Positions 5,900 to 32,207 of a DNA stretch of 32,207 nt are shown here, one piece after another; the stretch's first letter is position 1; each line of letters begins with the position of its first letter. Under the pieces are notes generated by a model, which saw only the letters and a list, made by a program, of their open reading frames with translations, was not told where the DNA came from and did no database searches. The DNA is from a virus, in the IMG/VR virus record IMGVR_UViG_3300028378_000016. One strand, 5' to 3'. The position numbers were made by a program, and so were the translations under genes.

Positions 5900-5916
5900 T
5901 TATAGGATAGAAAGCA

Positions 5917-6291
5917 ATGGCAAAATCTGAAGTAGTCGACCTGGGGCGCACCCAGGTAACCGTGAGAGAATTGACCCTGGAAGAAATCAAGGAGCTTTTC
6001 GATGCCACTGAAAAAAGCGCGACCGATGGTATTGTCAATATGCTGGAGAAGGCGACTACCATCAAGCGGGCCGACCTTATGAAAATGGCCCCTTCTGACA
6101 TGGAACCTATGCTCGACAAACTGGTAGAGGTTAACAGCTCTTTTTTAGGTCTATGTCGCCGGGCGAACAACCACGAACTGGCGGAAAGTCTGGAAACGCT
6201 TCTCAGCCAGGTTTCATTGATTGCGTTTTTTCAGTCATCGCCCACGGCCACGGGCAAAGAGCCTGGAAATACAGTTACAGCGACTTCCTAA
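5917..6291 (+). CDS. Tail assembly chaperone candidate
   Basis: 124-aa acidic ORF between the major tail and tape measure genes. It contains a T_TTT_TTA heptamer at 6141-6147. Confidence 0.55.
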   Translation: MAKSEVVDLGRTQVTVRELTLEEIKELFDATEKSATDGIVNMLEKATTIKRADLMKMAPSDMEPMLDKLVEVNSSFLGLCRRANNHELAESLETLLSQVSLIAFFQSSPTATGKEPGNTVTATS

Positions 6292-6312
6292 TAGCATTGA
6301 GGAATCTGCCCC

Positions 6313-7899
6313 ATGGTTGAAAACGAAAAGATAGAATATGCCCTGGCCTTGAACCTGTCCCGATTCCGCAAAAATGCGCGGCTGGCGGTGGGAAAAGTTG
6401 AGGACATGGACAAGAAAATCCGTAAATCGGTGAAAAACTCCGCCGGAGGATTTAACCAGCTGAAAACCGGCGTTTTAGCGGTGGGCACGGCAGCCACCGC
6501 GGTGGCAGCTGGCGGGCTGTTATTGATGAAAAAGGGGCTGGAGGATACCATCGGGCTGGCCAATGTCCAGGAAGATGCCGAAGTAAAACTTGCGGGGGTT
6601 ATCCGCGCCACCGGCGGCGCGGCTGGCTTTACCACCGGCGAACTCAAGACTATGGCCGCCGGATTGCAGGAGGTGACCACGGCGGGCGATGAAACCGTAA
6701 TCCAAGCGCAATCTGTGCTTGCCACCTTTAAGCAGATCAAAGGCGACCAGTTTCGCGACGCAACTCAGGCGGCACTTGATATGCAAACGGTTGTGGGCGG
6801 CGATTTGCAGGGCTCGGTCACCAGGCTTGGCAAGGCGTTAAATGATCCAGTTAGGGGAGTTTCAGCGTTGAACCGGGTTGGTGTTACTTTCAACGAAACG
6901 CAAAAGGCCACTATCAAGCGGTTGCAGCAATCCGGCGATATTATGGGAGCGCAAAAGGTTATCCTTAATGAGCTTGAATCAGAATTTGGCGGCACGGCGG
7001 CGGCGATCCGGGGCACATTTAAAGGCTCGGTTGATTCGGCGGCAAATGCCTGGGGCGATTTATATGAGCAGACCGGCTATGCCATCACCAAAAACAAGTT
7101 TTTTATCGAGTCAGCCAAACTGGTTGAACAGAAAATAATTGATCTTACTGGCAAGATACAGGGCAATGAGCAGGCCATGCGCGATTTAGCCAAAAAAGGC
7201 GGCCTGGCAGTTATTGACGGTATAGGGGCGGCAATCGAGGTCGTCCGCTTTTTCTATAACGGCTGGCAGGGCGTCAAACTAGCCGCCCACGGGGCGGTGT
7301 GGGGCATTGTAAAGGGCGCGGAACTTATCATTAAGGGGTTGCGTAAGGTCCTTTTCCCTTTAGATTTGTTGCTTACCGGCCTGGAAAAAATTGGGATTAT
7401 TGATTCTAACCCGCTCAAGGACTTGGAAAAAACGGCAGAGGGTTTCGCCGACCATCTTGGCGATGAGTTTTGGAAAAAATTTGATAAGGTGGAGGAAACA
7501 AACCGCAAGTTTGACGCGGCCAAGAAGAAGGTTGCCGATTTTCGGGCGGAAATCGGCAAAATATCCACAGAAAAGGTCGACGTTGCTCAGGACATTCAGG
7601 ACCAAGTGGACGCGGCCACCAAAAAAAATACAGGCGTCAAAAGCTACACCGGCAACGACGAGGCGGCGTTTAAAATGGTGGACGGCGTCTATCAACAAGT
7701 GAACCGGGGCCCGGTGAAAAACACCATAGATAAATTCAAATCGCCGGTGGGCGGCAGCCGGGAGAGCTACGAAAAAAGCAAACAGGCCGACAAAGTGCTC
7801 CGGCTCGATCTGCCCAACGGGGCCAGCTTGACAGGCGATTCAGACCAGACCGAAAATGTAATTGAAGGACTCCAGCAAGCGGGGTTGACGGCGCAATGA
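6313..7899 (+). CDS. Tail tape measure protein
   Basis: 528 aa. The TP901-like core pattern is present (AGVIRATGGAAGFTTGELKTMAAGLQEVTTAGDETVIQAQSVLATFKQIKGDQFRDATQAALDM). The protein is helical and Ala/Gly-rich. Confidence 0.8.
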   Translation: MVENEKIEYALALNLSRFRKNARLAVGKVEDMDKKIRKSVKNSAGGFNQLKTGVLAVGTAATAVAAGGLLLMKKGLEDTIGLANVQEDAEVKLAGVIRATGGAAGFTTGELKTMAAGLQEVTTAGDETVIQAQSVLATFKQIKGDQFRDATQAALDMQTVVGGDLQGSVTRLGKALNDPVRGVSALNRVGVTFNETQKATIKRLQQSGDIMGAQKVILNELESEFGGTAAAIRGTFKGSVDSAANAWGDLYEQTGYAITKNKFFIESAKLVEQKIIDLTGKIQGNEQAMRDLAKKGGLAVIDGIGAAIEVVRFFYNGWQGVKLAAHGAVWGIVKGAELIIKGLRKVLFPLDLLLTGLEKIGIIDSNPLKDLEKTAEGFADHLGDEFWKKFDKVEETNRKFDAAKKKVADFRAEIGKISTEKVDVAQDIQDQVDAATKKNTGVKSYTGNDEAAFKMVDGVYQQVNRGPVKNTIDKFKSPVGGSRESYEKSKQADKVLRLDLPNGASLTGDSDQTENVIEGLQQAGLTAQ

Positions 7900-8288
7900 T
7901 ACTTTTAACAGACGGCACCACCACTATAAATTTACCGCCTGATATGTACTGGCCGGATCAAAGCTGGACCGGCGTTGAAGCGGGCAGCGACGATTACAGC
8001 TTGAACGGGTCCCTGCATATCGACCCCTTTGTCAAACAGGCCGGGCGGCCCATTACTCTGCAAGGCGGCGAGAACTTCGGCTGGGTAACATGGCAGACTG
8101 TCCTTGACCTGGTGGACTGGGCTAAAGACCCGGGCAAGGAAATGACAATTACTATCGACAGCACAAGCTACACCGTCCGCTTTGACTACAGCAAGGGCGA
8201 CCCGGTAAAGGCTACCCCCATTTTCATGCTCAACCCGCCACGGCCAGACGATCTTTATTACATAACTTTGCGACTTATTGAGGTGTAA
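7896..8288 (+). CDS. Tail-tip protein, distal tail candidate
   Basis: 130 aa. It shares an ATGA overlap with the tape measure stop. Called from position only. Confidence 0.5.
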   Translation: MILLTDGTTTINLPPDMYWPDQSWTGVEAGSDDYSLNGSLHIDPFVKQAGRPITLQGGENFGWVTWQTVLDLVDWAKDPGKEMTITIDSTSYTVRFDYSKGDPVKATPIFMLNPPRPDDLYYITLRLIEV

Positions 8289-8291
8289 CAG

Positions 8292-10289
8292 ATGGCAATT
8301 CCCGAAACGTCCATAAAAATTATGGAAAGCCAAAACATGAGCGACAACGACGACGGCGGCGGGCGAAAGACGGGGCGCGAGATCGTCGACGGCAATATCA
8401 ATAATATGTTTAACGACATTTCCCGGCTTGACCGCACTTATGGCCGGGTAAGTCTGCGCGAAGCGTTTTTGTCCGTACAGACCGATACCACGGACATGTA
8501 TGCCGGGGCACATATTATCATTTCCAACCCTACAAAAGACCCGCTAGTCTCGGTCTGCATGTTCAAGACAACCAACGACTACGACTTTCGTACCGCAGCA
8601 CAGGACCGCATAGAAAGTTATGTCACCAGGGGGCCAAGGTATAACGGATGGTTTTGGGGAACCCAACTGGCAGGCCAGCGACAAATTTTACTTTTCCAGG
8701 CTGTTGGTACAGCAACGCCCGGCGTCGGCGACGTCCTTTTCTTGATCGAAAACGAGGACACCGCAGACGAGCAAAGCCAGTATGTCCGCATTACTAAGGT
8801 TGAGTCGACCACCCAAGATTTTACCGTAGGCAATACCACATTTACTCGTCAGATTGTCACCTTGGATATCGGCGACCCGCTGCGTGAAACCTATGGCGGC
8901 AATGAGATTTCCAACGACGACAGCCTGGAAACAAATATAAATAGCACCGTGGTTGCCGATGCCGCCGAATATTACGGCGTTATGTCATTGAGACAGCCGG
9001 TTTCTGTCAATGATGTTGCTATCAATGTCGACAGTATTTTTACCCACCTGGTGCCAAGTGCCCAGGCGGAAAGTCCGGTTGTTGACGTTTCCCTGGGCGA
9101 GGCCGGCCCGGTGAAGGAAAGCGGACAGGCGTATACCGACTATGTGCCCAGCTTTACCTTTGGCCATAACGCAACCTATTATTTCGGGCGCGGCATAAAA
9201 CCCGGTAGCCTTATTATAACCGCTGGTAACGGTGACACCTACACCGACAATAAGACCGGCGTTATGTACAACGGTGCCAACCAACGGGGCACTGTGAACT
9301 ATTCCACCGGCCTTGTGATATTTAAAGACATAGACGATTACACCGGCAGCCTTACCGCCCAAGCGATAATTGGCGCGGAGATATCCAGAGTTAACGATAC
9401 CAAGAAGATTGAAGTTGATATAAACAACCAGGGCTACACCTTTACCACTATTCTGGACCCGCTCCCCACCCCAAAAACACTCATTGTCGACTATATGAGC
9501 CAGGGCAAATGGTATCGGTTGCGCGATAACGGCAAAGGCGAAATATTGCCAGATATCGAAAAGACCGGCAGCGGCACCCTGAACCTGTCATCCGGCAGCG
9601 TGGCTCTTACATGCGGTGCCCTGCCCGATGTTGACACCAGCATCATATTTTATTGGGGCAACCCCCTGGAGGTTGAAGATATTTCCGGCACTGTCAGTAT
9701 TGATGTGCCGCAGATCGTACACACCCTGGCCGAATCGCCGGTAAAGCCAGGCAGCATAACAGTCACATGGCAAACTGGGGCGGGCACCGCTACCGCCACC
9801 GACGACGGCAGCGGCAACCTTTCCGGTGATGTCGTCGGGGGCACCGTCAATTATGCCGATGGCACGGTGATTTTCACCCCTACCGCCATCCCGGCAGCCG
9901 GGGCGGATTATACCTTTGATTATGACAAATACCCTTTTTCATCTGAAAGTACCGCCCCCACCGACCATGGCGCCGGTATTTACCAAGTTGAATTGACTGC
10001 CGGGCCCATTGAACCCGGCAGCGTTGCCTTTCAAATGAATATTAATTTTGGCATACACAGCCAGATATACAAGTTTACCGACCATGGCAACGGCACCATG
10101 AGTGCCCCAGGTTTCACCCTGGATACATCCATCACTCACCCGGAATATGAGGGCGGCGTTGAGGTTGGCGGACTGTCCGCCTCCGTGGATTATGTAACCA
10201 GCATTATACAAATTGACATTGGCAGTTTAAGCGGGATAGATAAATGGAGCCGCCCTGTCTATGGATATGATTTGGGATATGATTTTTAA
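8292..10289 (+). CDS. Large tail or baseplate structural protein
   Basis: 665-aa Thr/Gly/Val-rich, beta-type sequence in the tail-tip block. Confidence 0.5.
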   Translation: MAIPETSIKIMESQNMSDNDDGGGRKTGREIVDGNINNMFNDISRLDRTYGRVSLREAFLSVQTDTTDMYAGAHIIISNPTKDPLVSVCMFKTTNDYDFRTAAQDRIESYVTRGPRYNGWFWGTQLAGQRQILLFQAVGTATPGVGDVLFLIENEDTADEQSQYVRITKVESTTQDFTVGNTTFTRQIVTLDIGDPLRETYGGNEISNDDSLETNINSTVVADAAEYYGVMSLRQPVSVNDVAINVDSIFTHLVPSAQAESPVVDVSLGEAGPVKESGQAYTDYVPSFTFGHNATYYFGRGIKPGSLIITAGNGDTYTDNKTGVMYNGANQRGTVNYSTGLVIFKDIDDYTGSLTAQAIIGAEISRVNDTKKIEVDINNQGYTFTTILDPLPTPKTLIVDYMSQGKWYRLRDNGKGEILPDIEKTGSGTLNLSSGSVALTCGALPDVDTSIIFYWGNPLEVEDISGTVSIDVPQIVHTLAESPVKPGSITVTWQTGAGTATATDDGSGNLSGDVVGGTVNYADGTVIFTPTAIPAAGADYTFDYDKYPFSSESTAPTDHGAGIYQVELTAGPIEPGSVAFQMNINFGIHSQIYKFTDHGNGTMSAPGFTLDTSITHPEYEGGVEVGGLSASVDYVTSIIQIDIGSLSGIDKWSRPVYGYDLGYDF

Positions 10290-10298
10290 GGGGAATTT

Positions 10299-11909
10299 AT
10301 GTCGACAACGACCGTAGTAGTCAGACCATCTATTACCAAATATGCCGAGGAAAGCCAGGCGTTAAACTGGACCGACGCCAGCGGCGGCACCGCCTTTTGC
10401 AATTATTCCCTGGACACCCCGGCCCAGCAAACCGCCCAGGAGGTGGTCGCGGCCCAGCCTTTTGAAATTGATCTAACGCCCAACCTGGACACAAAAACCA
10501 TAGTGCCTGGCAGCGTTTCTTTTTCATGGGGCGGCAATCGCTACGTTGACCGGCTAGGAAAGCTCTACAAAAACCCAAAACCGGCAACCGGCGTCGGCGT
10601 CGAGGCGGGCAGCATTGACTATACCACCGGCAAAGTGCAGCTGAACAACTACGACAGCGGCGACAACACCATTACCATTCATTCTTTGTTGTCCCGTTCG
10701 GGTCGCCAGTTTATTGCATACGGCGTTTTTCGCACACCAGGGGCCCCGCTCAGGCCGGGCAGCCTGACAATACAGGGCGCGGCAGCGGACGGCACCGCTA
10801 TTACCGTAACCGCCGCCTTTGACGGCACAATCGACGAGCCGGGCGTCCAGGGCTACATTAACGTTGATACCGGCGTGGCCTGGCTGGCCTTTGGCGATTA
10901 TGTCACCGCAGCTGGCAACGAATCCGAGCCCTGGTACAGCGAAGACACCCTTGACGGCGCCGGCAATGTCTGGAAACCAAACCCGGTTTTTGCCGACACC
11001 TTCACCTATACTTGTGTCGTTTATAGTTATATTCCGTTGGATGCCGATTTGATCGGCCTGGACCCCGTGCGGCTGCCGACCGACGGCCGGGTCCCGATTG
11101 TCCGTAGCGGCAACGTTGCGGTAATACACAACACTCAAACCTTGCAGCTTGCCCCCGGGCTGGCGGCCGGGCAGGAAATAACCTTTTTCCGGCCTGGTAT
11201 CAACTCTGTACGGCTCTATGATGCAGAGGGCGTCTATGTGCCAACCACCTATTACAGCTTTGACGAGGATACACAAATTTTAACGATGGCGGATCCGCTG
11301 GACCTGTCCGGCTTTACAGAGCCGCTCATTGCAAACCATCGCGTAGAAGATATGGCCCTGGTCAATGATGTGCAGATTAACGGCCAGCTGAACCTAGCAA
11401 GGGGCGTTTCCCACGATTACCCGACAGATGGAACCTATGTTTCAAGCGCCATGCTCTATGGCGATCTGCAAGCCCGCGTATACAACCTCTTTGACCAAAA
11501 AACATGGTCTAACGATTGGAGCGACGACATGGTCGGCGACGCCGCCACCGGCACTTACAACGACCTTGATTTTCCACCGATTATTACCAACAAGGGGGCG
11601 GTTAAAGAACGTTGGGCCCTGGTCTTTGACGACGCGGGCAGCCATGTGCAAGTTATTGGAGAAAAATACGGCGTAGTGCATGACGGCTATATTTCCCAAG
11701 ATATCGAGCCTATAAACCCGGCAACCGGCCAGGCATTTTGGAAACTGGCTTATGAGGGCTGGGGCGCGGGCTGGTCTAATAACAATGTATTGCGCTTTAA
11801 TACCGAGGCCGCCGACGGCGGATTTTGGATTGCAAGAACGACACTACAGGGACCGGAAACCGAACCATACGACGAATTTACAATACAACCGAGGGGAGAT
11901 AGCGAATAA
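10299..11909 (+). CDS. Tail structural protein
   Basis: 536 aa in the tail-tip block. No family recognised. Confidence 0.5.
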   Translation: MSTTTVVVRPSITKYAEESQALNWTDASGGTAFCNYSLDTPAQQTAQEVVAAQPFEIDLTPNLDTKTIVPGSVSFSWGGNRYVDRLGKLYKNPKPATGVGVEAGSIDYTTGKVQLNNYDSGDNTITIHSLLSRSGRQFIAYGVFRTPGAPLRPGSLTIQGAAADGTAITVTAAFDGTIDEPGVQGYINVDTGVAWLAFGDYVTAAGNESEPWYSEDTLDGAGNVWKPNPVFADTFTYTCVVYSYIPLDADLIGLDPVRLPTDGRVPIVRSGNVAVIHNTQTLQLAPGLAAGQEITFFRPGINSVRLYDAEGVYVPTTYYSFDEDTQILTMADPLDLSGFTEPLIANHRVEDMALVNDVQINGQLNLARGVSHDYPTDGTYVSSAMLYGDLQARVYNLFDQKTWSNDWSDDMVGDAATGTYNDLDFPPIITNKGAVKERWALVFDDAGSHVQVIGEKYGVVHDGYISQDIEPINPATGQAFWKLAYEGWGAGWSNNNVLRFNTEAADGGFWIARTTLQGPETEPYDEFTIQPRGDSE

Positions 11910-12904
11910 TGGCACCACCAACAGTTTACCGATGGGATGATGATAATGCACCGGTTTTGGCTATCAATGATTCTGACACTTCGGCTCTTGTCGAAATTGT
12001 TAAAGCATGTCTAGTTGACGGTTACGGCTCAAAGATGCCACCGGGGGCAGGATACAGCTTGGAATTTGAAAACGCAGACGGCACTGCTATTGCTATAAAA
12101 AGCCAATCTCCAGATAGCAACGGGTTCTATTATTCAGTAGCTACAGAGCAAGCTCTGTACGAAGACCCTTTAAAAGATGAACACATTAACATAATCAATA
12201 TGTACGAAAACATGACTGATGCGATCTCAGGCATAAACAGCACGTATCCAGGGCGTTTGTTTGCGTGTTTTGACGACGACTCCTCATATTATGACGAGCC
12301 TATTGCCTGGGTTTTAGTTGCAGATGATAGAGCCTTTTACTTATTTTTGTACATCGAAGGAGACTGGAAGCTATCTGAAAATCCTGATTTTGACTATATA
12401 ACAGCTTACAGCAATGGATTTTTTGGCGATTTCAACACAATCAGCCCTGATCCATGGTCTTCTCTTGTGTGGGGTTATTCGACCCTGGGAAACAGAGGTA
12501 GCAGGTTTGGGATGCTCGATGAGTATCGCAATAGTATGAGTGGCGCACAGGTAAAACGTAGCCGAGGTGGGCTAGATCTTGACGGACATGACGTCTCGAT
12601 ATATCACGGCGGAGGCCCTTTTTGGGCAGAAGACGGCATGGGGCACTCTAGTGATAGCGACAAGACCACGCCATTTGGTGAAGGTGAACCTACTTTTATT
12701 ACACGACCAATGCTTAGTGATACTACCGACCCAAAAAATTTTAGAGGGTATATTCCGGGGTTATACTATCCGTGCCACAATCGGCCATATAAAAACTTAG
12801 AGCAAGTAACGGTTGCTGATAAGACGTTTTTAGCAGTTAGAATACGTTTTTATCCGTACGATGATGGGCAGGTCTTGATTGATTTAGGCGATTGGCGAGC
12901 ATAA
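11909..12904 (+). CDS. Tail-associated protein, possibly a receptor-binding candidate, in an AT-rich island
   Basis: 331 aa. It is translationally coupled to its neighbour (TAATG). Its GC content is visibly lower than both neighbours. Confidence 0.45.
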   Translation: MAPPTVYRWDDDNAPVLAINDSDTSALVEIVKACLVDGYGSKMPPGAGYSLEFENADGTAIAIKSQSPDSNGFYYSVATEQALYEDPLKDEHINIINMYENMTDAISGINSTYPGRLFACFDDDSSYYDEPIAWVLVADDRAFYLFLYIEGDWKLSENPDFDYITAYSNGFFGDFNTISPDPWSSLVWGYSTLGNRGSRFGMLDEYRNSMSGAQVKRSRGGLDLDGHDVSIYHGGGPFWAEDGMGHSSDSDKTTPFGEGEPTFITRPMLSDTTDPKNFRGYIPGLYYPCHNRPYKNLEQVTVADKTFLAVRIRFYPYDDGQVLIDLGDWRA

Positions 12905-12918
12905 AAAGGAGATAAGAC

Positions 12919-13236
12919 ATGGCGACATATAATGAGATAATAGTTAGTGATGATCTCTTGATCGGGAACGACACGCCTTACAAACCAGCTCATAGACATT
13001 CGCTGGCAGGCACTGTCTCAGTCAATGGCTCACCGTCAAAAAAGCGCATTGTCGTGATTAATCGTATCACGATGGAATACTTCGCTGTTACTGACTCAGA
13101 TGCACAAACTGGGATGTGGGAAATCACTCATTTGCCAGAGTATGACGAGCGATCATTGCTAGTGCTGGCATTTGATGACGCAGGCGAGTTCAACGCCGAG
13201 ATAGCAGACTTCGTTTCTCAAGTTGCCACGGCGTAA
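12919..13236 (+). CDS. Small tail-associated protein, beta-sandwich-like
   Basis: 105 aa, AT-rich. Its stop overlaps the next gene's start (TAATG). Confidence 0.45.
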   Translation: MATYNEIIVSDDLLIGNDTPYKPAHRHSLAGTVSVNGSPSKKRIVVINRITMEYFAVTDSDAQTGMWEITHLPEYDERSLLVLAFDDAGEFNAEIADFVSQVATA

Positions 13237-15335
13237 TGTCATATGATCCCGGCACAAACATTCTCTTTTCATTTCGAGTGGTCTATGAGCCGCCTAAAGG
13301 AAATGCTATTGAGTTTCGTCTGGGCGACTTCTCGCAGGTCTGCGAGATGTTTCTCCCGGCAGTCGGGGAGGTTGATTTCAGTCTTGCAACGCTTCTGCCT
13401 GTTTCGCTTGATTTTGCTTTTAACGAGAAGTGCTACCCGGATAATCAGCAGGAACAGATCATTCCAAAATGTGAAGAGATCAAGATCTATGTCGCCCCGG
13501 TCGGCCTGGTCGATTTCGACTTCTTCAAGCCGTATGACTGGCCGAGCGGCACGGTTGATTTCGATCTGGCCGACTGCCTTGGCGATGATCCACCGGAGCC
13601 TCCCCCGCCATGGTATGTCATACCGGCAAATATCAGCCAGGATTTTGCCGTCGGTTTCAAAACTGGCCAGGTTGCAGACACCCAAAAACGCAGCCGATGG
13701 AAAGACGCCACATATATCGAGCCGGAATATCGAGCCGGTTGGGGCCAGGGCGAAGTTGTAGACCGGCTGGTTAAATCCGGATTTATTGGACTGCCAGCAC
13801 TTTACCGTGAAAACCGGGTTGCTTTTGACAGACTGTTACGCAGCGAAAACGACATTTTTGCAGCGTGGCACAATCTCGAAGGCAATGACAGCAACGAAAA
13901 GCGCAGCATCTGGGACAGCACTACGGCAAAAGACGGCAAACTTAATGCTGGATACCGCGAGCCAGGGGCGAAAGATAACCATTTTGTCATCCCCTGGGGA
14001 ATCACAACAAAGGAAATTGATTTTTCCTTTGTTGTGCCCTGGGCGGTGCCGCCGCCCAATGACACATTGCATACAACAAAGTGGGGCCGGGCATGGTATG
14101 AAAAGATATGCATCCGCGATTATCTGCCGCCAGCAGGCACCGCCGTGGCTTTGGATTTTGAAACGCAAATTTCAGACGTTGGCGACAAGGACCATATTCA
14201 TTTCTGGTTTGATTCGCTTAGCTATGACGAGCGCTGCAACCACCGGGAGCCGTCCGGCTGGCGTGATCCCTACACCTACCGGCCGCCTCTTATCGTGCCG
14301 CAGACCCCGAACAGGAGGGCCTACACCAACATGAATAGCGCATTACTTAAAAAGGTTTCAGACAACATGCCATTGGACTTGTCCACCTTTTCTGCAAAAA
14401 TAGATTTTGGCTCATGGGTGTGGGATTTTTCCGCCAGCTTGCAAACCTGGTCATCATTTGATGCGGTGGAGCCGGACGAAAACGGTTTCCAAGAGGTAGA
14501 GGCTGATATAAACGGCTATATTTTCCGGGGCATAGTTGAACGGGCAAGCGAACAGGAACAGCGGAAAACCAGCTTTGCTATTCGCGGCCGTGGCCCGGCT
14601 GCAGAACTAGCCAGGCCATATGCCCCGCAGACCAGCTACACAGAAGAGGCCGAGCGAGGTGCCAGGCAGATTATAGAAGAACGCTTGAGCGGCACAGGCT
14701 GGGCGCTTGATTGGCAGATAACCGACTTTACTATCCCGGCTAACGTTTACACCTTTCACAATGCCACCCCGCTGGAAGCAATAAAGCAGATAACCGAGGC
14801 CCTGGGGGCACGTATACAGGCCCACCTGCACAGCAAAACGCTTAAAATACTGCCACGTTATCCGATCAAGCCATGGGAATGGGACACCACCACCCCAGAG
14901 CTTATTATCAGCGAATCGGTAATAATGACGTCGTCGCGGGATTGGCTGCCCGGCGGAAATTACAACGGCGTGGTTGTAAGTGGCACTAATACAGGTGTGC
15001 TGGTCAAAGTGATGCGAACGGGCAGCGGTGGCACCGAAATGGCACCAATGATAACCAACCCGCTTATTGTCACAACCGAGGCAGCAACTCAGCGTGGTAT
15101 ATACGAGATTGCCGCTTCCGGAAGCTGGCAGACTTACACAATCACTTTACCACTCAAAACAGAGCCGGAACAGCCCGGGCTTTTGCTGCCCGGGACCTTG
15201 TTGCAGATCAACCGAGAGAGGGAATCATTTAATGCCATGGTAACCGGCGTTAAAGTTACGGCAAAACGACAAAACGGGCTTAAGGTCCGGCAAATTGTTG
15301 AGGTGCAGCGATACCGTGGCAAACATTTGGCGTAA
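13236..15335 (+). CDS. Large tail-tip or host-specificity-type protein
   Basis: 699-aa ORF, the last large ORF of the tail block. Confidence 0.5.
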   Translation: MSYDPGTNILFSFRVVYEPPKGNAIEFRLGDFSQVCEMFLPAVGEVDFSLATLLPVSLDFAFNEKCYPDNQQEQIIPKCEEIKIYVAPVGLVDFDFFKPYDWPSGTVDFDLADCLGDDPPEPPPPWYVIPANISQDFAVGFKTGQVADTQKRSRWKDATYIEPEYRAGWGQGEVVDRLVKSGFIGLPALYRENRVAFDRLLRSENDIFAAWHNLEGNDSNEKRSIWDSTTAKDGKLNAGYREPGAKDNHFVIPWGITTKEIDFSFVVPWAVPPPNDTLHTTKWGRAWYEKICIRDYLPPAGTAVALDFETQISDVGDKDHIHFWFDSLSYDERCNHREPSGWRDPYTYRPPLIVPQTPNRRAYTNMNSALLKKVSDNMPLDLSTFSAKIDFGSWVWDFSASLQTWSSFDAVEPDENGFQEVEADINGYIFRGIVERASEQEQRKTSFAIRGRGPAAELARPYAPQTSYTEEAERGARQIIEERLSGTGWALDWQITDFTIPANVYTFHNATPLEAIKQITEALGARIQAHLHSKTLKILPRYPIKPWEWDTTTPELIISESVIMTSSRDWLPGGNYNGVVVSGTNTGVLVKVMRTGSGGTEMAPMITNPLIVTTEAATQRGIYEIAASGSWQTYTITLPLKTEPEQPGLLLPGTLLQINRERESFNAMVTGVKVTAKRQNGLKVRQIVEVQRYRGKHLA

Positions 15336-15543
15336 ATTCAAAACATTACTGGCAGAATCAACTATAGAGGTGGTCACTGTACAGTCGATCAACGCGGCCG
15401 GTACAAGCAAATGCACCACCTACCAAGGCGGCGTGGTAATCGTCAGCGGCGACAGCGTAGCTGTGGGCGACAAGGCCTTCATCCAGGACGGGCGCATCAT
15501 AGGCGAAGCCCCGGACTTAAGCTATTACGAGATTGAGGTGTGA
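15316..15543 (+). CDS. Small protein (~75 aa) at the end of the tail block
   Basis: The ORF is open from a TTG at 15295. A GTG at 15316 is preceded by gaggtg. The sequence is Gly/Val-rich and beta-like. Confidence 0.4.
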   Translation: MANIWRKFKTLLAESTIEVVTVQSINAAGTSKCTTYQGGVVIVSGDSVAVGDKAFIQDGRIIGEAPDLSYYEIEV

Positions 15544-15606
15544 GAATTGAAGCTGATGCAGGCCAACAACGATGACTATTCCGTCGTCAACGAAGAGGAT
15601 TGATTA

Positions 15607-15729
15607 ATGAGCAAAGCATGGAAATATCTACAAGAATTTGTTGGATGGTGTGCCTTTCTGGCGGTTTGCCTCTTTGTGTTTTTCGCCGTCTATTTACCAT
15701 GTAAAATTTTGGAAGACAAATGCGACTGA
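15607..15729 (+). CDS. 40-aa single-pass membrane peptide, first gene of the lysis region
   Basis: An aagagga ribosome-binding site lies 7 nt before the ATG. Reads MSKAWKYLQEFVGWCAFLAVCLFVFFAVYLPCKILEDKCD. It is below the ORF-track cutoff. Confidence 0.4.
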   Translation: MSKAWKYLQEFVGWCAFLAVCLFVFFAVYLPCKILEDKCD

Positions 15730-15835
15730 GGCCCCACCACGGCCCTGCGCCCAAAAAAGACAAGGTAATAAAATTCTCGGTCACGATGCCGTTGCAACGG
15801 CTGAGGGATATTATCAAATCGATATGGAGGAGGCT

Positions 15836-16105
15836 ATGTCAAAGATAGTCACGATTATCAAAGCAGTACAGGCCGGGCAGGAATTGAAAAACCCGGAAAA
15901 TTGGAAAAAGGGGCAAGTACTCACAAACCTGACCGGGGCTGTGGTGGCGGGCATTATAACGGCTCTGCACTGGTGGTACCCCGATGTGCCGCTACCTGAT
16001 GGTGTGGCCGAATATGCCGCCGAGATGATCGGCACAGCCCTGGTGCTTGTGAACCTGTACCTTACCTATGCAACCTCAACTAAAATAGGAGTAAAAAAGC
16101 AATGA
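15836..16105 (+). CDS. Holin-like protein with two predicted transmembrane segments
   Basis: ggaggagg sits before the ATG at 15836; the track ORF extends upstream to 15638. Hydrophobic stretches are LTGAVVAGIITALHWW and MIGTALVLVNLYLTYA. Confidence 0.5.
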   Translation: MSKIVTIIKAVQAGQELKNPENWKKGQVLTNLTGAVVAGIITALHWWYPDVPLPDGVAEYAAEMIGTALVLVNLYLTYATSTKIGVKKQ

Positions 16106-16362
16106 AATACGCATTCACGCTGTTGAAATTGGTACCTGTCTTCATGGATATCATTATGAAAATTGAAGAAGTTCTCCCCGAAAAACACAAGGGAGCTGAA
16201 AAACTTGCCTTGTTTCGCGGTATTGTAGAAAAGTTGTATCCCGATCTTATGAAGATGTGGGACATAATCGAAACACTGGTTGCAACAATAGTCAGGTTTT
16301 TCAATGATAATGGGGCTTTTGAGAAGAAAGCAGAGAGACCAGCAAAGCCTGAGCTTGACTAG
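16102..16362 (+). CDS. Lysis-region small protein, possibly LL-H-type holin-like
   Basis: 86 aa. It has an ATGA overlap with the previous gene, a hydrophobic N-terminus (LLKLVPVFMDIIM) and a KGAEKLALF motif. Confidence 0.4.
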   Translation: MKYAFTLLKLVPVFMDIIMKIEEVLPEKHKGAEKLALFRGIVEKLYPDLMKMWDIIETLVATIVRFFNDNGAFEKKAERPAKPELD

Positions 16363-16381
16363 TGTAGGGACTTTCTACAAC

Positions 16382-16400
16382 GCCACTGGTATTCAGTGGC
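16382..16400 (+). other. Hairpin (gccactg-gtatt-cagtggc) between lysis-region genes
   Basis: Perfect 7-bp stem with only TT downstream. It is a weak terminator or a regulatory structure. Confidence 0.3.
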
Positions 16401-16422
16401 TTAAAGTTAAGTGGAGGGTGCC

Positions 16423-16926
16423 ATGACATCGAAGTATGAAAAAGAAGATATTCGAAAAGTTCAAGAAGCGAAATGTGATGTGAACGGGTGCCAAATGGAA
16501 GAGACAGGAGTATGCGCCTTGCATGATGTAGAGGTAGAGAGAAGAGAGGGCATGAAAGCTCTGGTGGATAAGATTCCAGGAATTTTGACTCGTCTTAACC
16601 TTATATTAGGCACGACTGGATTAATCGGCATGATTATCGCGGCTAGTTTTCTCTACACCAGCATGGTCAAAACCGAGCTGCGCCAAGAGATTACCCTACA
16701 GAGGCAGGAAGGATCTGTATCTGTGTCTGAAATACGTTCCCTTGTACGTGATATAGCCGTTACACAAGGCAAAAACATACAGGCACAAAAATTTCAACTA
16801 AAACAGCTGTCAAGACTGAATACATCAATTTCAAACATGCTTGAAAGGCAAGAAACGTTTGAAGATTTAATAAACAAGCGGATTGATGCAAGGTTTGATA
16901 GCTGGGGAACTCAAATAAACCAATAA
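16423..16926 (+). CDS. Membrane-anchored coiled-coil protein, candidate spanin-like or lysis accessory protein
   Basis: The ATG at 16423 follows gtggaggg. There is one central transmembrane segment (LILGTTGLIGMIIAASFLY) and a helical C-terminus. Confidence 0.45.
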   Translation: MTSKYEKEDIRKVQEAKCDVNGCQMEETGVCALHDVEVERREGMKALVDKIPGILTRLNLILGTTGLIGMIIAASFLYTSMVKTELRQEITLQRQEGSVSVSEIRSLVRDIAVTQGKNIQAQKFQLKQLSRLNTSISNMLERQETFEDLINKRIDARFDSWGTQINQ

Positions 16927-16929
16927 ACC

Positions 16930-17286
16930 ATGAGTCTATACAGCGAACCCCTGTTTTTCCGACACGAATTCGCCTGCCGCTGTGGCTGTGGCTTCGACAC
17001 CGTGGATGCCGAGCTGCTCCAGGTGCTACTCAAGGCCAGAGAAGACCTGAACGCCCCGGTAGATATCACCAGCGGCTGCCGCTGCAGCCACCACAACGCC
17101 AGGGTAAACGGCAGCCCCAAATCAATGCACCTGCTCGGCCGGGCAGGGGATATAAACATACGTACCTACACCCCGGCACAAGTTCACGAATACCTCTGCC
17201 GCATCTACCCCGACAAATACGGTATAGGTAAATACACCTACTTCACCCATATAGATACCCGATCCGGCCCCCCGGCCAGGTGGTAG
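16930..17286 (+). CDS. Endolysin, peptidase M15 (zinc D-Ala-D-Ala carboxypeptidase-like) family
   Basis: 118 aa. The SGCRCSHHNARVNGSPKSMHLLGRAGD ... THID pattern matches the H/D/H zinc ligands of M15-type phage lysins. Confidence 0.8.
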   Translation: MSLYSEPLFFRHEFACRCGCGFDTVDAELLQVLLKAREDLNAPVDITSGCRCSHHNARVNGSPKSMHLLGRAGDINIRTYTPAQVHEYLCRIYPDKYGIGKYTYFTHIDTRSGPPARW

Positions 17287-23571: not shown

Positions 23572-24015
23572 TTAACGCTTATTGAATTTATTGGCTAATG
23601 CGCTTATGCCTTGTGTAATTTTTGGAACAATATAGCTATGTACTTTAGGAGAAAGATCCTGTTCGTTTATTTTGAGAAAACAACTGATTATAAGTTTTGC
23701 CGTTTTATCTGGTAAGACCCCAATATGTTTTAGCTTCTTGTCGATAGTCTTTTGACTGAACGGGAAACAATCGTCGAGCTGTATCCATGTGTCCTTTTTG
23801 AAGAAAGGGCTGTTTGATCGGACAAAATAAACTTGATGATAGTTTTCAATACAACCTGGATTATCAGGTTTTGAATGTTTTTGGGATGTAGTTTTTACCA
23901 GCAGATATGGATCATTAGAGGCAGGATTGTTTAAGAGAACGAGAAGTTTTTTACCTTTTGTGCCATCGGAAAAAATGAAGTTTTCGGCAACAAAAATCGA
24001 GCCACGAGCAAACAC
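23572..24015 (-). CDS. Candidate toxin, MazF/PemK-like by motif layout, partner of the Panacea-domain gene
   Basis: The GTG at 24015 lies 1 nt after the upstream stop, with GGAG 9 nt upstream. GSIFVAENFIFSDGTKGKKLLVLLN...YLLVKTTSQ...DTWIQLDD...IGVLPDKTAKLI parallels the MazF strand order. The ORF is open to a TTG at 24075. Confidence 0.5.
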   Translation of the reverse strand: MFARGSIFVAENFIFSDGTKGKKLLVLLNNPASNDPYLLVKTTSQKHSKPDNPGCIENYHQVYFVRSNSPFFKKDTWIQLDDCFPFSQKTIDKKLKHIGVLPDKTAKLIISCFLKINEQDLSPKVHSYIVPKITQGISALANKFNKR

Positions 24016-24016
24016 T

Positions 24017-24583
24017 TTATGCGACTCCGAAATTGTGCAACATTTCTTGACGTTCGCGATGACGCTGTTTTGCAATATCGACAGGTAATTTTTTAGCAGA
24101 TTTACTGTCTATAGCTAAAGCATAATCAATTAATGCCAACATTCCTTTGGTTGCCTTGGTTGTGTTCCAAGGTTCATTTGGTAAATGGGAAATGTCAGAT
24201 ATTTCTTTTGCTTGAACATCTCGAAAAATTAATGAAATGTCTTTTAATAATTTTAATTCTCTAGGAGAGAAAAAGTCTAAGTCAGGTTTTTTCCCTTTTT
24301 TGGGGGCGATATGTTGGAAATCACCAGTGTCTTTGACGGTAACTAAAGATTTTAAGTCTTTTTGGGGAGAATCACTGATCTCTTCAAAAAATATTTTGGG
24401 GACAGGGCCTTGTTCCCATGCAAAATAGTTTAAATCTGTGACTGATTTACCAGTATTTTTGAAGTGCATAAAATCCAGAAAATATAATAATTTCATGAGC
24501 TTCGTTTTTCCACAAAATTTTGTTTTTTGTGAAAAATACAGAACTGCATTTATTAGCTTTTCTCTGGAATGTGTAATTATCAT
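24017..24583 (-). CDS. Panacea (DUF4065, SocA/PanA-like) domain antitoxin
   Basis: LINAVLYFSQKTKFCGKTKLMKLLYFLDFMHFKNTGKSVTDLNYFAWEQGPVP is the typical DUF4065 core. The start at M43 (24583) is preferred because the longer ORF runs upstream of the predicted promoter. Confidence 0.75.
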   Translation of the reverse strand: MIITHSREKLINAVLYFSQKTKFCGKTKLMKLLYFLDFMHFKNTGKSVTDLNYFAWEQGPVPKIFFEEISDSPQKDLKSLVTVKDTGDFQHIAPKKGKKPDLDFFSPRELKLLKDISLIFRDVQAKEISDISHLPNEPWNTTKATKGMLALIDYALAIDSKSAKKLPVDIAKQRHRERQEMLHNFGVA

Positions 24584-24638
24584 AGCGAAGATATCAATAC
24601 TCTGGTTACTGTTTTTCGTCAATAACTGTCTTTTCTTT

Positions 24639-24667
24639 ATGATATTGCGTGATAAAGGGAATGTCAA
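24639..24667 (-). promoter_or_regulatory. Promoter of the toxin-antitoxin cassette
   Basis: On the - strand: TTGACA, 17 nt, TATCAT. Confidence 0.5.
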
Positions 24668-24688
24668 ATTTGCATACACAGAACGACC

Positions 24689-24826
24689 TAGCTCACGGGA
24701 TTTTTGCAATTAAACCAAAAAATGAGGATTGAAAACATGAACACAGATAAACCCGAAAATAAGCTCGAAGCCGGACGTGCAAAATTCCGGTGCAGCGTTT
24801 TGTTGGGTGGACGGATAAAAACGGTG
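24689..24826 (+). repeat. Repeat R2, copy A (138 bp), about 95 percent identical to 31989-32128
   Basis: tagctcacgggatttttgcaattaaacc...ggataaaaacggtg is shared. I counted two 1-nt indels and about 4 substitutions by eye. Confidence 0.85.
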
Positions 24827-24921
24827 AAAGATAAAAATGTATATGTTTTTCTATTGACACTCCTTTGATAATGCTGTATATTATAATCATAAACAAAGGG
24901 AATTAACCCAAAAAAAAAAGG
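24817..24921 (+). repeat. Promoter module P, copy 1 (about 105 bp), near-identical to 25997-26102
   Basis: aaaaacggtgaaagataaaaatgtatatgtttttctattgacactcctttgataatgctgtatattataatcataaacaaagggaattaaccc(a)n-ggaga. The only difference is poly-A length. Confidence 0.9.
24854..24882 (+). promoter_or_regulatory. Strong sigma70-type promoter (P copy 1)
   Basis: TTGACA, 17 nt, TATATT. An imperfect AT-rich palindrome (aaaaatgtatatgttttt) lies just upstream. Confidence 0.65.
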
Positions 24922-24929
24922 AGATCAAC

Positions 24930-25217
24930 ATGAAAGCAATAATCGACATCATCAAAGCAGAAAATAAAAACGGACTGCATGACATCATTATAGCTCGCTA
25001 TAATAAGGACATCGAAGTTAATCTCAACACGGGCATCATGGACAACGAGATTCCTGAAATTGGCGAGACATTAACTGATGGAAATAGGGACATGATGGTT
25101 ATTGGTCATGTAGTTATTGACGGATCAGTTGGAGTTAAGTTTGAAAATTTCCCTTCAATTGTAGCGGGTTCTCAAATAGTTAAGATGTTGTCCGATGATA
25201 CAGTGAGGGTTAAATAA
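24930..25217 (+). CDS. Small acidic hypothetical protein (95 aa)
   Basis: A ggaga ribosome-binding site is present. It is the first gene after promoter P. About 15 acidic versus about 10 basic residues. Confidence 0.6.
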   Translation: MKAIIDIIKAENKNGLHDIIIARYNKDIEVNLNTGIMDNEIPEIGETLTDGNRDMMVIGHVVIDGSVGVKFENFPSIVAGSQIVKMLSDDTVRVK

Positions 25218-25558
25218 TGACACCAGAAAAAGCAAAAAACATTTATTGGGGAGCAATGCCGCTCCCCAAAGGGGCAAAATCTTTAGGCGAATACACAAGC
25301 CTCGGAAAGCGTGGGTGTTTGATCGAGCTGGCTAATGGCAAGCGTGTTGTAGGTAACGCTGGTGTGATCCGCAGTGTTAGAGGTGGAGCAATGCCAGGTG
25401 CCGGTGCACCTAAAAAGCCAGATTGGTTAAAGAAACGTCAAATCGGATTGCAGTTGCCCAACTGGATTATTGATAAATTGGATAATTTACCAGGAAGTAG
25501 ATCCACGGAAATTGAAGATGCTTTAATTGACAAATATGGGTGGAAGCCACCAAGGTAG
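25217..25558 (+). CDS. Hypothetical protein with a C-terminal ribbon-helix-helix-like segment
   Basis: TAATG coupling to the previous gene. RQIGLQLPNWIIDKLDNLPGSRSTEIEDALIDKYG resembles a CopG/Arc-type strand-helix-helix. Confidence 0.5.
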   Translation: MTPEKAKNIYWGAMPLPKGAKSLGEYTSLGKRGCLIELANGKRVVGNAGVIRSVRGGAMPGAGAPKKPDWLKKRQIGLQLPNWIIDKLDNLPGSRSTEIEDALIDKYGWKPPR

Positions 25559-25597
25559 TCCACCCAACCTAAATGACACTGATAGGAGGCAGAAATT

Positions 25598-25753
25598 ATG
25601 TATTGTTATTTATGTGGCAGAAAATTACATAATAACGACGGACACGATCTCAGGCAGCCTTCCGGCTACACAAGAAAAGTGCACTTTCGGTGTTACGAAA
25701 AATACAGATTAAAAAGAGAAGCAGATTTAAATCAAAACCTAAAGCGAGGATAG
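25598..25753 (+). CDS. 51-aa zinc-ribbon-like protein, below the ORF-track cutoff
   Basis: AGGAGG lies 7 nt before the ATG. Reads MYCYLCGRKLHNNDGHDL...VHFRCYEKYRLKRE. I prefer it over the track ORF at 25527..25712 in another frame. Confidence 0.45.
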   Translation: MYCYLCGRKLHNNDGHDLRQPSGYTRKVHFRCYEKYRLKREADLNQNLKRG

Positions 25754-25757
25754 TAAA

Positions 25758-25976
25758 ATGAAAAGCGGATACTACATAAAACGATGTAAAGATGACTCTC
25801 AAATGTTGCTATTAATTCAAGAGTGGCGAATTAACCCGAAAAGTCGCATTCATACGGAGGTAGCTGCAATTATTCATGAAGATAATATGCAAGGTTTAGA
25901 CCAAGATACTATACGGCAACTAGACAACGGTGCAATTATTGAAATGGAATTTCACGTAAAAGAAGAGGATGAATAA
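25758..25976 (+). CDS. Small acidic hypothetical protein (72 aa)
   Basis: gcgagga lies before the ATG. The C-terminus is acidic (KEEDE). Confidence 0.55.
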   Translation: MKSGYYIKRCKDDSQMLLLIQEWRINPKSRIHTEVAAIIHEDNMQGLDQDTIRQLDNGAIIEMEFHVKEEDE

Positions 25977-26015
25977 ATGGAAAATTCTAAACTACAAAAA
26001 AACGGTGAAAGATAA
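25977..26015 (+). pseudogene. Duplicated 5' fragment of the pentapeptide-repeat gene (MENSKLQK...), cut off by promoter module P
   Basis: atggaaaattctaaactacaaaaaa at 25977-26001 is identical to 26109-26133. The fragment reads into P and stops after 12 codons. Confidence 0.5.
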
Positions 26016-26102
26016 AAATGTATATGTTTTTCTATTGACACTCCTTTGATAATGCTGTATATTATAATCATAAACAAAGGGAATTAACCCAAAAAAAAGG
26101 AG
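25997..26102 (+). repeat. Promoter module P, copy 2
   Basis: See copy 1; the sequences match apart from poly-A length. Confidence 0.9.
26035..26063 (+). promoter_or_regulatory. Strong sigma70-type promoter (P copy 2) driving the pentapeptide-repeat gene
   Basis: TTGACA, 17 nt, TATATT. Confidence 0.65.
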
Positions 26103-26108
26103 ACCCAA

Positions 26109-26657
26109 ATGGAAAATTCTAAACTACAAAAAATGTTGAAAGCTCATAAAATTTGGATAGATTCGGATAAAAAGCAGGGAGAACAAGCCAATTTTTGCGG
26201 AGCCGATCTTCGTGAAGTCGATTTTTGTGGATTCGATCTTCGTGAAGCCAGTTTTTGCGGATGCGATCTTTCCGGATGCGATTTTTATGGGTCCGATCTT
26301 CGTGAAGCCAGTTTTTATGAATCCGAACTTCGTGGAGCTAATTTTCGCGGATGCGATCTTCGCAGATGCGATTTTTATGGGTCCGATCTTCGTGAAGCCA
26401 ATTTTTGTGAAACCGATTGTTATAAAGCCAAATTTTGTGAAACCGATCTTCGCGGATGCGATATTCGTAGAGCCAATTTTTATAAAGCCGATTTTCGCGA
26501 ATCCAATCTTCGCGGAGTCGATTTTCATAGATCCAAATTTTATAAAACCAATTTTTATGAAACCAATCTCTATGGATCCAATTTTCGCGGAGCCATTGTT
26601 CTCGGATCCAATCTTCATGAAGCCAATCTTGATTTTTTCAACGGGAGTTTCGTGTAA
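26109..26657 (+). CDS. Pentapeptide-repeat protein with 30 uninterrupted A(D/N)(L/F)xx units, Cys-rich
   Basis: Residues 27-176 parse without a gap as ANFCG ADLRE VDFCG FDLRE ... SNLHE ANLDF. About 11 Cys are present. The DNA shows 15/30-nt periodicity. Confidence 0.85.
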   Translation: MENSKLQKMLKAHKIWIDSDKKQGEQANFCGADLREVDFCGFDLREASFCGCDLSGCDFYGSDLREASFYESELRGANFRGCDLRRCDFYGSDLREANFCETDCYKAKFCETDLRGCDIRRANFYKADFRESNLRGVDFHRSKFYKTNFYETNLYGSNFRGAIVLGSNLHEANLDFFNGSFV

Positions 26658-26722
26658 AAGAAGAGGAGAGGGAGCAAAATGACATGGCAGAAAAAATCTA
26701 GCAAATATCTGAGGAGTACAAC

Positions 26723-26812
26723 ATGCGCAATCTAATCTGGAGCGGTTTTGTCGTGATGGTCATCGTGCCCGCATTCTATCTTGTTGCTGGCTTCATCGAA
26801 AAACTTAACTGA
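26723..26812 (+). CDS. 29-aa hydrophobic membrane peptide
   Basis: gaggag lies 6 nt before the ATG. Reads MRNLIWSGFVVMVIVPAFYLVAGFIEKLN. Confidence 0.35.
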   Translation: MRNLIWSGFVVMVIVPAFYLVAGFIEKLN

Positions 26813-27009
26813 GGAGAAAAAAATTAAAAATTCTAAACTACAGAAAATGTTGAAGACCTGGCAGAGATATTACCATTCGGGGAGTATGGAAAAATTCAAA
26901 TTAAAGAATTGGCGGCACTTCTTCAAGCTTACGGCTATCGAAGCCCAAGGTCTTAAGGAAATACCATGAAAAAAGGTTTGTCTCTTTTGCATAATAATTA
27001 TATTTGGTA

Positions 27010-27038
27010 TTGATACGGTATCCGTACCGTGCTATAAT
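27010..27038 (+). promoter_or_regulatory. Near-consensus promoter with a palindromic operator in the spacer, heading the packaging/late operon
   Basis: TTGATA, 17 nt, TATAAT. The spacer contains the perfect palindrome ACGGTA-tccg-TACCGT (27015-27030). Confidence 0.55.
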
Positions 27039-27085
27039 TAGTCAACAGTTGAGCAAAACAACAAACCAAAACGGAAGGGGCCGCT

Positions 27086-31988: not shown

Positions 31989-32128
31989 TAGCTCACGGGA
32001 TTTTTGCAATTAAACCAAAAAAATGAGGATTGAAAACATGAACACAGATAAACCCGAAAATAAGCTCGAAGCCGGACGTCCAAAAATTCCGCTGCAGCGT
32101 TTTGTTGGGTTGACGGATAAAAACGGTG
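31989..32128 (+). repeat. Repeat R2, copy B (140 bp); its tail lies in the terminal overlap
   Basis: See 24689-24826. Confidence 0.85.
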
Positions 32129-32142
32129 GTATGACTGGGTAG
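32038..32142 (+). CDS. Possible 34-aa ORF inside R2 copy B
   Basis: gagga lies 9 nt before the ATG. Reads MNTDKPENKLEAGRPKIPLQRFVGLTDKNGGMTG. In copy A (24737-24868) an indel changes the frame after codon 14, so coding is doubtful. Confidence 0.25.
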   Translation: MNTDKPENKLEAGRPKIPLQRFVGLTDKNGGMTG

Positions 32143-32207
32143 TTTATATTACTGCCTGTCAACCATTATTTTTATGTTTTTTATAGCTGTTTTTTACCCG
32201 TTTTATA
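32081..32207 (+). repeat. Terminal overlap; identical to 1-127
   Basis: Read directly. Confidence 0.95.

Follow-up and report, generated by a model that had tools for sequence, protein, structure and literature searches.

A phage protein of 30 unbroken pentapeptide repeats encoded at an unstable accessory locus

IMG/VR virus record IMGVR_UViG_3300028378_000016 is a DNA of 32,207 nucleotides, analysed here in full and referred to as the window. Its plus-strand gene at 26109 to 26657 encodes a 182-aa pentapeptide-repeat protein (PRP), which we named PRP-A. The frame begins with ATG, and an AGGAG motif read from the sequence lies 6 nt 5' of it. PRP-A matched Pfam family PF00805 at 145.7 bits against a cut-off of 20.2 (E=2.3e-43) and was also above the cut-offs of PF13599 and PF13576. 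The identical protein was called on 7 metagenomic contigs. A preliminary description of this stretch, made from the letters alone, had called the gene phage-encoded, which was borne out by matches in the window to portal, fused protease-capsid, tape-measure and tail proteins and to Nu1- and GpA-type terminase. The gene and its parts are listed below.

26109 to 26657, plus strand: coding sequence of PRP-A, 182 aa, stop codon counted in (open reading frame (ORF) list and PF00805 match)
26098 to 26102, plus strand: Shine-Dalgarno motif AGGAG (direct sequence reading)
26115 to 26162, plus strand: codons of the predicted N-terminal capping alpha-helix, residues 3-18 (DSSP assignment on the AlphaFold model; predicted local distance difference test score, pLDDT, 94-96)
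26187 to 26636, plus strand: pentapeptide array, 30 unbroken units, residues 27-176, about 7.5 solenoid coils (unit parse and strand periodicity of the model)
26203 to 26462, plus strand: youngest part of the array, with a 90-nt (6-unit) period, 2.9 copies and 81% identity (Tandem Repeats Finder (TRF), exact repeat and GC gradient)

When the array was parsed unit by unit, residues 27-176 resolved into exactly 30 consecutive 5-residue units with 0 insertions, confirming the number and the lack of loops first described. The main residues at each position of the unit were as follows.

Position i-2: A 11, S 7, C 5, T 4, V 2, F 1
Position i-1: D 14, N 10
Position i: F 15, L 12
Position i+1: R 12, Y 8, C 5, H 2
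Position i+2: G 13, E 10, K 3, R 3

The underlying DNA is as regular as had been reported. The sequence GATCTTCGTGAAGCC is present in 3 exact copies and 1 copy with a single mismatch (expected 0), and TRF found tandem periods of 15, 30 and 90 nt. The longest exact repeat inside the gene is 36 nt, found at 26275 and 26365. GC content is 46-48% in 26203 to 26462 against 36-38% in the 3' units. Unit expansion, also suggested earlier, gained support from the 90-nt period, from a 12-unit paralogue described below and from the near-identical phages L and ST64T, whose orf232 genes differ by a single 15-bp unit (PMC8022706). The repeat does open other frames as claimed, among them a minus-strand frame of 164 aa and another plus-strand frame of 156 aa (ORF list); a start, a ribosome-binding site (RBS) and a domain match coincide only in the annotated frame.

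We modelled the PRP-A monomer with AlphaFold2 from a 23-sequence alignment. The model had a mean pLDDT of 87.9 and placed a helix at residues 3-18, followed by a solenoid with a strand every 5 residues to about residue 173. The last 11 residues were non-helical (pLDDT 52-68), so that the sole helix is the N-terminal one. Among the matches listed by Foldseek against the PDB, only pentapeptide-repeat structures appeared, and the best superposition among them was on the designed solenoid 5di5 (TM-score 0.82, root-mean-square deviation 1.6 Å). The TM-score to MfpA was about 0.62 and most AlbG and Qnr chains scored lower. In a sequence search of the PDB, DotG, designed solenoids and HetL outscored Qnr and MfpA. 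The model and the listed matches agree with the right-handed quadrilateral beta-helix of about 7.5 turns proposed at the outset. As modelled, PRP-A is a stand-alone beta-solenoid of about 7.5 coils, about 36 Å long, without loops or a C-terminal dimerisation helix.

The capping helix carries a motif, L..(I/M)L..H..W(L/I)....G..A.(L/F), which PRP-A has in common with the proteins P0001, P0002, P0010 and P0012. The N-terminus is hydrophilic and all Pfam domain matches are to pentapeptide repeats. With a hydrophilic N-terminus and no catalytic domain, we favour a cytoplasmic, non-enzymatic protein.

Around the gene lie a duplicated promoter and several remnants of rearrangement.

25998 to 26098, plus strand: promoter and leader cassette of 101 nt before PRP-A, with -35 TTGACA at 26035-26040 and -10 TATATT at 26058-26063
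24817 to 24917, plus strand: sister copy of the cassette, heading the operon orf95-orf113-orf51-orf72 (100% identity over 101 nt)
25966 to 26008, plus strand: upstream remnant of a PRP gene start, ATGGAAAATTCTAAACTACAAAAAA then cut by the promoter cassette (direct repeats, 74% identity to the true start)
26634 to 26667, plus strand: 3' end of PRP-A and the following AAGAAGAGGA, repeating the 3' end of orf72 at 25936-25969
26812 to 26854, plus strand: start remnant of a second PRP gene, PRP-B, with its ATG decayed to ATT (86% identical to the true start)

The arrangement TTGACA-17-TATATT at 26035-26063 is a near-consensus sigma70 promoter, matching at 11/12 positions, although promoter-like sites in the region were no more numerous than in shuffled sequence. 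The promoter had been described as strong and dedicated to this gene; the exact 101-nt copy at 24817-24917 shows that it is not dedicated. The exactness of the duplication within the window points to a recent event. In salt-lake populations, depth is higher over the cassette than over its flanks, and the cassette is followed by at least 4 different sequences or genes. Because of this excess depth and these varied sequels, the cassette appears to behave as a portable early-promoter and leader element. No terminator-like site was found after PRP-A, and two called inside the gene are repeat artefacts.

A separate 140-nt repeat (96% identity, 24689-24826 and 31989-32128) encodes a 43-aa ORF (MRIENMNTDKPENK...). 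One copy is 5' of the early promoter and the other is just upstream of the structural module. The junction AAAAACGGTG is common to both copies and to the joint upstream of PRP-A.

The remnants record a history of recombination and paralogue turnover. The upstream remnant copies the first 25 nt of PRP-A and overlaps the orf72 stop at 25975-26001. On the 3' side, the repeat at 26634 to 26667 is likely the recombination joint that shortened the C-terminal tail of PRP-A: the related protein P0003 and the salt-lake alleles have a longer tail (..SVYGQTNCHYNDWPTVKRDRC), and PRP-A stops early at the joint. Between PRP-A and the PRP-B remnant lies an uncalled plus-strand gene with a GAGGAG RBS (26724-26813) for a hydrophobic peptide of 29 aa (MRNLIWSGFVVMVIVPAFYLVAGFIEKLN). 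On contig L045, from another ENA assembly, the identical peptide gene precedes an intact PRP of 12 units, P0003, with 51% identity to PRP-A. P0003 had been taken for a short PRP-A orthologue; this was revised, as L045 shows it in the position of the downstream paralogue, PRP-B. The arrangement in L045 indicates that the lineage once had two tandem paralogues, and that the window lost the second. The two paralogues differ in unit number, with 12 in P0003 against 30 in PRP-A.

Contigs of the sister populations join 26094 to 27067, 24913 to 27067 and 25551 to 26700, and are thus variants without PRP-A. Joints inside the gene (skips of 244-347 nt and a 225-nt back-step) were left unused, their sides being only 21-36 nt within the repeat. 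Phages L004 and L005 carry the downstream 223-aa gene at 66-72% identity with no PRP upstream. Together, the deletion variants and these PRP-less phages indicate that PRP-A is an accessory gene and its locus unstable. As regards the features of a moron, the gene has a promoter copy, is absent from relatives and some variants, and is not followed by a terminator-like site.

In the operon headed by the sister cassette, orf113 (25217-25558, plus strand) ends in a ribbon-helix-helix-like segment (RQIGLQLPNWIIDKL..STEIEDALIDKY), which resembles a 70-aa protein (L005, 5786-5998) encoded directly upstream of the 224-aa gene in L005. Relative to L005, orf51, orf72 and the PRP gene look like an insertion of about 1.6 kb. 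On the minus strand at 23572-24709, a Panacea/SocA-domain antitoxin-like gene (Pfam E=1.7e-18) precedes the gene of a 147-aa partner without a family match. These two genes, on the opposite strand to their neighbours, are possibly a toxin-antitoxin-like or counter-defence pair.

The cysteines of PRP-A had been noted as unusual. Their number and regularity held: there are 11, of which 5 are at the buried i-2 position, 5 at the exposed i+1 and 1 at i, all within coils 1-5. Their peculiarity did not: salt-lake sister populations differ at 2 of the 11, with Arg in place of C50 on every contig and Ser in place of C117 on about half, and unrelated phage PRPs also have Cys at i-2 or i+1. Small residues (A, S, C, T and V) fill the buried i-2 position, and Cys is found there in relatives too, for example P0010. 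The i+1 codons are CGY (12), TGY (5), CAT (2) and TAT (8), a series in which each step is one transition. G>A or C>T differences of this kind are also seen at i+2 (GGA 11, GAA 10, AGA 3, AAA 3), at i-1 (GAT 14, AAT 10) and at i (CTT 11, TTT 15). A conserved metal-binding or disulfide motif was ruled out by the fixed C50R, the C117S at about 50%, the confinement to coils 1-5 and the transition series of the codons. The cysteines were tied to drift because of this series and the fall in GC along the array from 48% to 36-38%. The simplest reading would be an amplified ADLRG-type unit drifting to the local AT-rich composition, with Cys as an intermediate state; AT-biased transitions would turn the exposed i+1 Arg (CGY) into Cys, His and Tyr.

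A Corynebacterium megadyptis prophage (L030) encodes an unrelated 321-aa PRP at 5000-5965, and a homologue of the window's 223-aa gene lies 2 kb downstream of it. As in PRP-A, the residue at the exposed i+1 position of this PRP cycles through H/Y/C/R, here in a high-GC genome. Such cycling may be a general feature of phage PRPs, beyond AT drift alone.

Population variation was next set against the solenoid. The 25 single-nucleotide polymorphisms (SNPs) in PRP-A comprised 7 synonymous changes over 110 sites and 18 nonsynonymous over 436, a pN/pS of about 0.65 that derives from short contigs within the repeat, some possibly mis-placed. Replacements obeyed the solenoid rules, with D>N at i-1, L>I, F>L and V>I at i, and T>A and C>S at i-2. 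Surface positions varied freely (C50R, Y60S, E73K, E36G). In run X22, PRP-A was about 99% identical to the window, compared with about 96.5% for the flanking genes. The fold appears to be maintained, and specific surfaces much less so.

A phage-encoded PRP is common, not rare: tblastn found PRP genes in 298 GenBank phage records, all less than 60% identical to PRP-A. No close relatives of PRP-A were found in IMG/VR, and megablast of the 5-kb neighbourhood against GenBank phages gave no match. BFVD contains predicted structures for dozens of phage pentapeptide-repeat proteins, none of them functionally named, and the literature searched contained no functionally characterised phage PRP. Like PRP-A, orf232 of the P22-like Salmonella phages ST64T and L, ORF19 of ST104 and the PRPs of Romulus, Remus and Twort (Staphylococcus) and Barba (Rheinheimera) are stand-alone proteins of about 110-250 aa. 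These uncharacterised proteins are 30-41% identical to PRP-A over the repeats and are encoded by early or accessory genes. PRP-A differs from them in its 30 unbroken units, its duplicated promoter cassette, the remnants of a second paralogue and a different host and phage lineage. In phage L, the early-left (PL) operon runs N, ral (antirestriction), PRP (orf232), gene 17, cIII, kil, erf, abc1 and abc2 (anti-RecBCD). The phage that encodes P0001 (L012, 6750-7595) is temperate; the gene lies in its early region, with the immunity region on one side and YqaJ/RecT downstream. A role in counter-defence or host takeover draws its main support, which is indirect, from this recurrence of PRP genes in phage early regions beside DNA-conflict genes.

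The best database matches of PRP-A (E down to 4e-27) are proteins in which a PRP is fused to DUF5758 (P0001, P0002, P0004, P0005, P0010 and P0020). They share the capping-helix motif and ADLRG-type units with PRP-A but, unlike it, bear a C-terminal DUF5758 of about 105 aa (PF19062, E ~1e-36); PRP-A has no PF19062 match. A degraded DUF5758 downstream of PRP-A was discounted, as parts of P0001, P0002, P0004, P0010 and P0020 gave no tblastn signal in the window. DUF5758 had no sequence relative in the PDB and no functional report in the literature searched. In the phage and prophage fusion family, this domain has conserved Cys and His residues.

Our preferred reading, held tentatively and with less than even confidence, is that PRP-A is an accessory solenoid active in infection that binds a host protein stoichiometrically or serves as its decoy, the most plausible partner being one that handles DNA. 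No integrase was found among the called genes with precomputed Pfam hits and no repressor was detected, and the phage is probably non-temperate; the lack of an integrase favours a role during infection over lysogenic conversion. Host RNA polymerase would transcribe PRP-A from the sigma70-like cassette, which is reused before several early or accessory genes. By filling the substrate site of a host protein, the rigid, DNA-sized rod could then block or redirect that protein; type II topoisomerases and the nucleases of DNA-targeting defence or of repair are the most plausible targets. The timing of expression, the binding and the nature of the target are what we infer here. There is a precedent in the binding of gyrase by Qnr, MfpA and AlbG (PMC7980463, PMC3089455, PMC10886550). 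The locus itself would evolve by duplication of 15-nt and 90-nt units, recombination at shared gene-end sequences, and gain and loss of paralogues. Ocr, ArdA, Arn and Gam/Abc-type inhibitors share the proposed logic, being early, small, non-enzymatic decoys of DNA-binding host enzymes, and the folds of Ocr-, ArdA-, Arn- and Gam-type proteins are unrelated to that of PRP-A. Those proteins are also strongly acidic, whereas PRP-A is near charge-balanced.

Several results weigh against this decoy reading. PRP-A has 30 D+E and 26 K+R residues, for a net charge of -4 (-6 in the solenoid) and an isoelectric point of 5.5. By unit register, its four faces carry -5, -3, 0 and +2. An acidic stripe like that of AhQnr was considered (faces 1+2 = -8, 3+4 = +2) and set aside, since 12% of unit-order shuffles matched it (p=0.12). 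Coils 1-2 are acidic (-3 each), later coils range from -3 to +2, and Tyr is mostly in the C-terminal half. Qnr-family proteins are negatively charged, and AhQnr strongly so (PMC3089455); beside a "strongly negatively charged" Qnr, the surface of PRP-A looks a poor polyanion. MfpA forms an elongated, B-DNA-shaped homodimer via C-terminal interactions (PMC7980463), and the monomer model of PRP-A has no C-terminal dimerisation helix of the MfpA type. Similarity to gyrase-binding PRPs was not above that to DotG, HetL and designed solenoids. HetL, PipB2, NleL and DotG are among the many PRPs with no DNA role. McbG and QnrB did not inhibit BREX, whereas Ocr blocked it (PMC7261183), indicating that solenoid shape alone is insufficient for anti-defence activity. 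No RNA runs containing the PRP-A region were found, and the pN/pS of PRP-A points to weak constraint only.

The most serious alternative, possible though on balance doubtful, is that PRP-A is a generic protein-protein scaffold, whose variable Arg/Tyr/Cys/His faces would bind a phage partner or a host factor unconnected with DNA (membrane, division, translation or signalling). Most characterised PRPs outside the Qnr group are not DNA mimics, and HetL, PipB/PipB2, NleL/SopA and DotG match PRP-A as well as or better than Qnr/MfpA. A scaffold would also suit the near-neutral charge, the Tyr-rich C-terminal coils and an exposed i+1 position that is the most variable both within PRP-A and in the population, and the nearest relatives fuse the solenoid to DUF5758 as if it were a targeting module. 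The P22-like and L012 neighbourhoods (ral, abc, erf, RecT) point instead to DNA-metabolism conflicts, and no candidate partner adjoins the gene, its only neighbour being the 29-aa membrane peptide.

The decoy reading that we prefer also has a narrower form, which we regard as unlikely: a new kind of rapidly diversifying counter-defence cassette with one or two decoy paralogues behind a portable early promoter, whose length and i+1 residues are tuned to variable DNA-targeting immunity proteins of the host. Length would be tuned by the 15-nt and 90-nt units and i+1 by a one-step R/C/H/Y codon square. If this were true, PRPs would be widespread, unrecognised anti-defence DNA mimics of phages, and their ral, gene 17 and abc neighbours in P22-like phages would be explained. 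PRPs are annotated in hundreds of phage genomes. Were PRP-A, or the better-placed P22-like orf232, proved to be a decoy of host topoisomerases or DNA-targeting defences, a large fold family would join the anti-defence repertoire and a recurrent early-operon gene would be explained. The locus illustrates cleanly, in nature and within one phage population, how such genes evolve by expansion of units, duplication of a promoter cassette and turnover of paralogues. For the present, our account of PRP-A is a correct annotation with a functional guess and not a discovery.

It is less probable still that PRP-A is a true analogue of Qnr, MfpA and AlbG, binding gyrase or topoisomerase IV to protect it from natural poisons or to throttle supercoiling for phage replication. 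The preliminary description had drawn this comparison, and the profile searches missed both families widely. PRP-A scored 55.8 bits against the NCBIfam Qnr model NF033086 (cut-off 240), 38-53 bits against the QnrA/B/C/D/E/S/VC models (cut-offs 425-500) and 39.9 bits against the MfpA model NF000349 (cut-off 360). It was likewise below the cut-offs of the NCBIfam models HetL (98.9 bits against 260) and Alr5209 (88.2 against 125). What PRP-A shares with Qnr (QnrB1, AhQnr), MfpA, EfsQnr, AlbG and McbG is the same beta-helix (TM-score 0.62 to MfpA), a similar monomer size (182 aa against 183-218 aa) and a rod of about DNA diameter, and the small phage proteins Igy and Gip are known to target gyrase (PMC10886550). 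Gram-negative Qnr depends on two surface loops, of which loop 2 is indispensable if gyrase is to be protected (PMC3089455); neither the 30-unit parse nor the AlphaFold model has Qnr-type loops in PRP-A. It further differs from the topoisomerase-directed PRPs in having its helix at the N-terminus and not the C-terminus (cf. PMC7980463), in its weak negative charge and in being phage-borne. Its unit number varies between paralogues, and 12 against 30 units is hard to square with a fixed, gyrase-fitting geometry. The family, loop, helix and charge results, read from sequence and model, remove the specific support for a "Qnr/MfpA-like DNA mimic" without disproving binding to a DNA enzyme. DNA mimicry and gyrase binding by PRP-A remain a guess; the protein falls outside the sole characterised group of DNA-mimicking PRPs.

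We give yet lower probability to the view that PRP-A does little or nothing, as a repeat ORF in decay or in selfish expansion that stays open merely since pentapeptide-coding DNA lacks stops in all frames. All frames are open and pN/pS is only about 0.65; gene fragments lie on both sides, the sister paralogue has already decayed, recombination has cut the C-terminal tail and deletion variants exist. Such decay is difficult to reconcile with an intact start, a strong RBS and a promoter copy kept or acquired by the gene. Moreover, 30/30 units obey the solenoid rules, population substitutions conserve the fold, the X22 gene is closer to the window than its flanks are, and the identical protein is present in several independent assemblies.

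The least probable is a moron-like superinfection-exclusion or defence gene that shields the infected or carrier cell from other phages, for although PRP-A has its own promoter copy, lies in a variable region next to the Panacea-domain antitoxin-like pair, weakly matches Hailong HalA and belongs to a repeat class that NACHT sensors can bear as domains (bioRxiv 2022.07.19.500537), stable carriage is doubtful with no integrase or repressor detected, no family of the PADLOC-DB defence models matched at E<=0.01, and the gene has neither a terminator after it nor an effector domain.

The genome that carries PRP-A is siphovirus-like, and its further genes include RecT, an SbcC-like ATPase, VRR-NUC and an O/DnaD-like replication initiator. 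The window ends, 1-127 and 32081-32207, are identical over 127 nt, and independent assemblies are 32,207 and 32,221 bp long. The end overlap and the independent assemblies indicate a complete circular assembly of about 32.08 kb. No transfer RNA genes were found in the window. Its source is lake water, metagenomes of that kind accounting for 99% of sampled words, and diverged relatives occur in many metagenomes of salt lakes. The large terminase subunit (TerL) of the phage is at most 39% identical to those of GenBank phages. A TerL search of GTDB genomes for a host gave no match. Calling the host by a profile of the 223-aa gene proved unusable, the hits being scattered contigs of metagenome-assembled genomes (Desulfobacula, Planctomycetota and others) and Corynebacterium prophages. 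GC content is about 53% in the structural module (1-17000) against 35-42% across 18-28 kb, the stretch of recombination, replication and accessory genes that includes PRP-A, and this split between the halves suggests a mosaic origin. Within the structural module, the adjacent plus-strand ORFs at 8292-10289 and 10299-11909 match positions 1-649 and 693-1197 of the 1200 positions of phrog_6128, and would together represent a split or naturally bipartite large tail-region protein.

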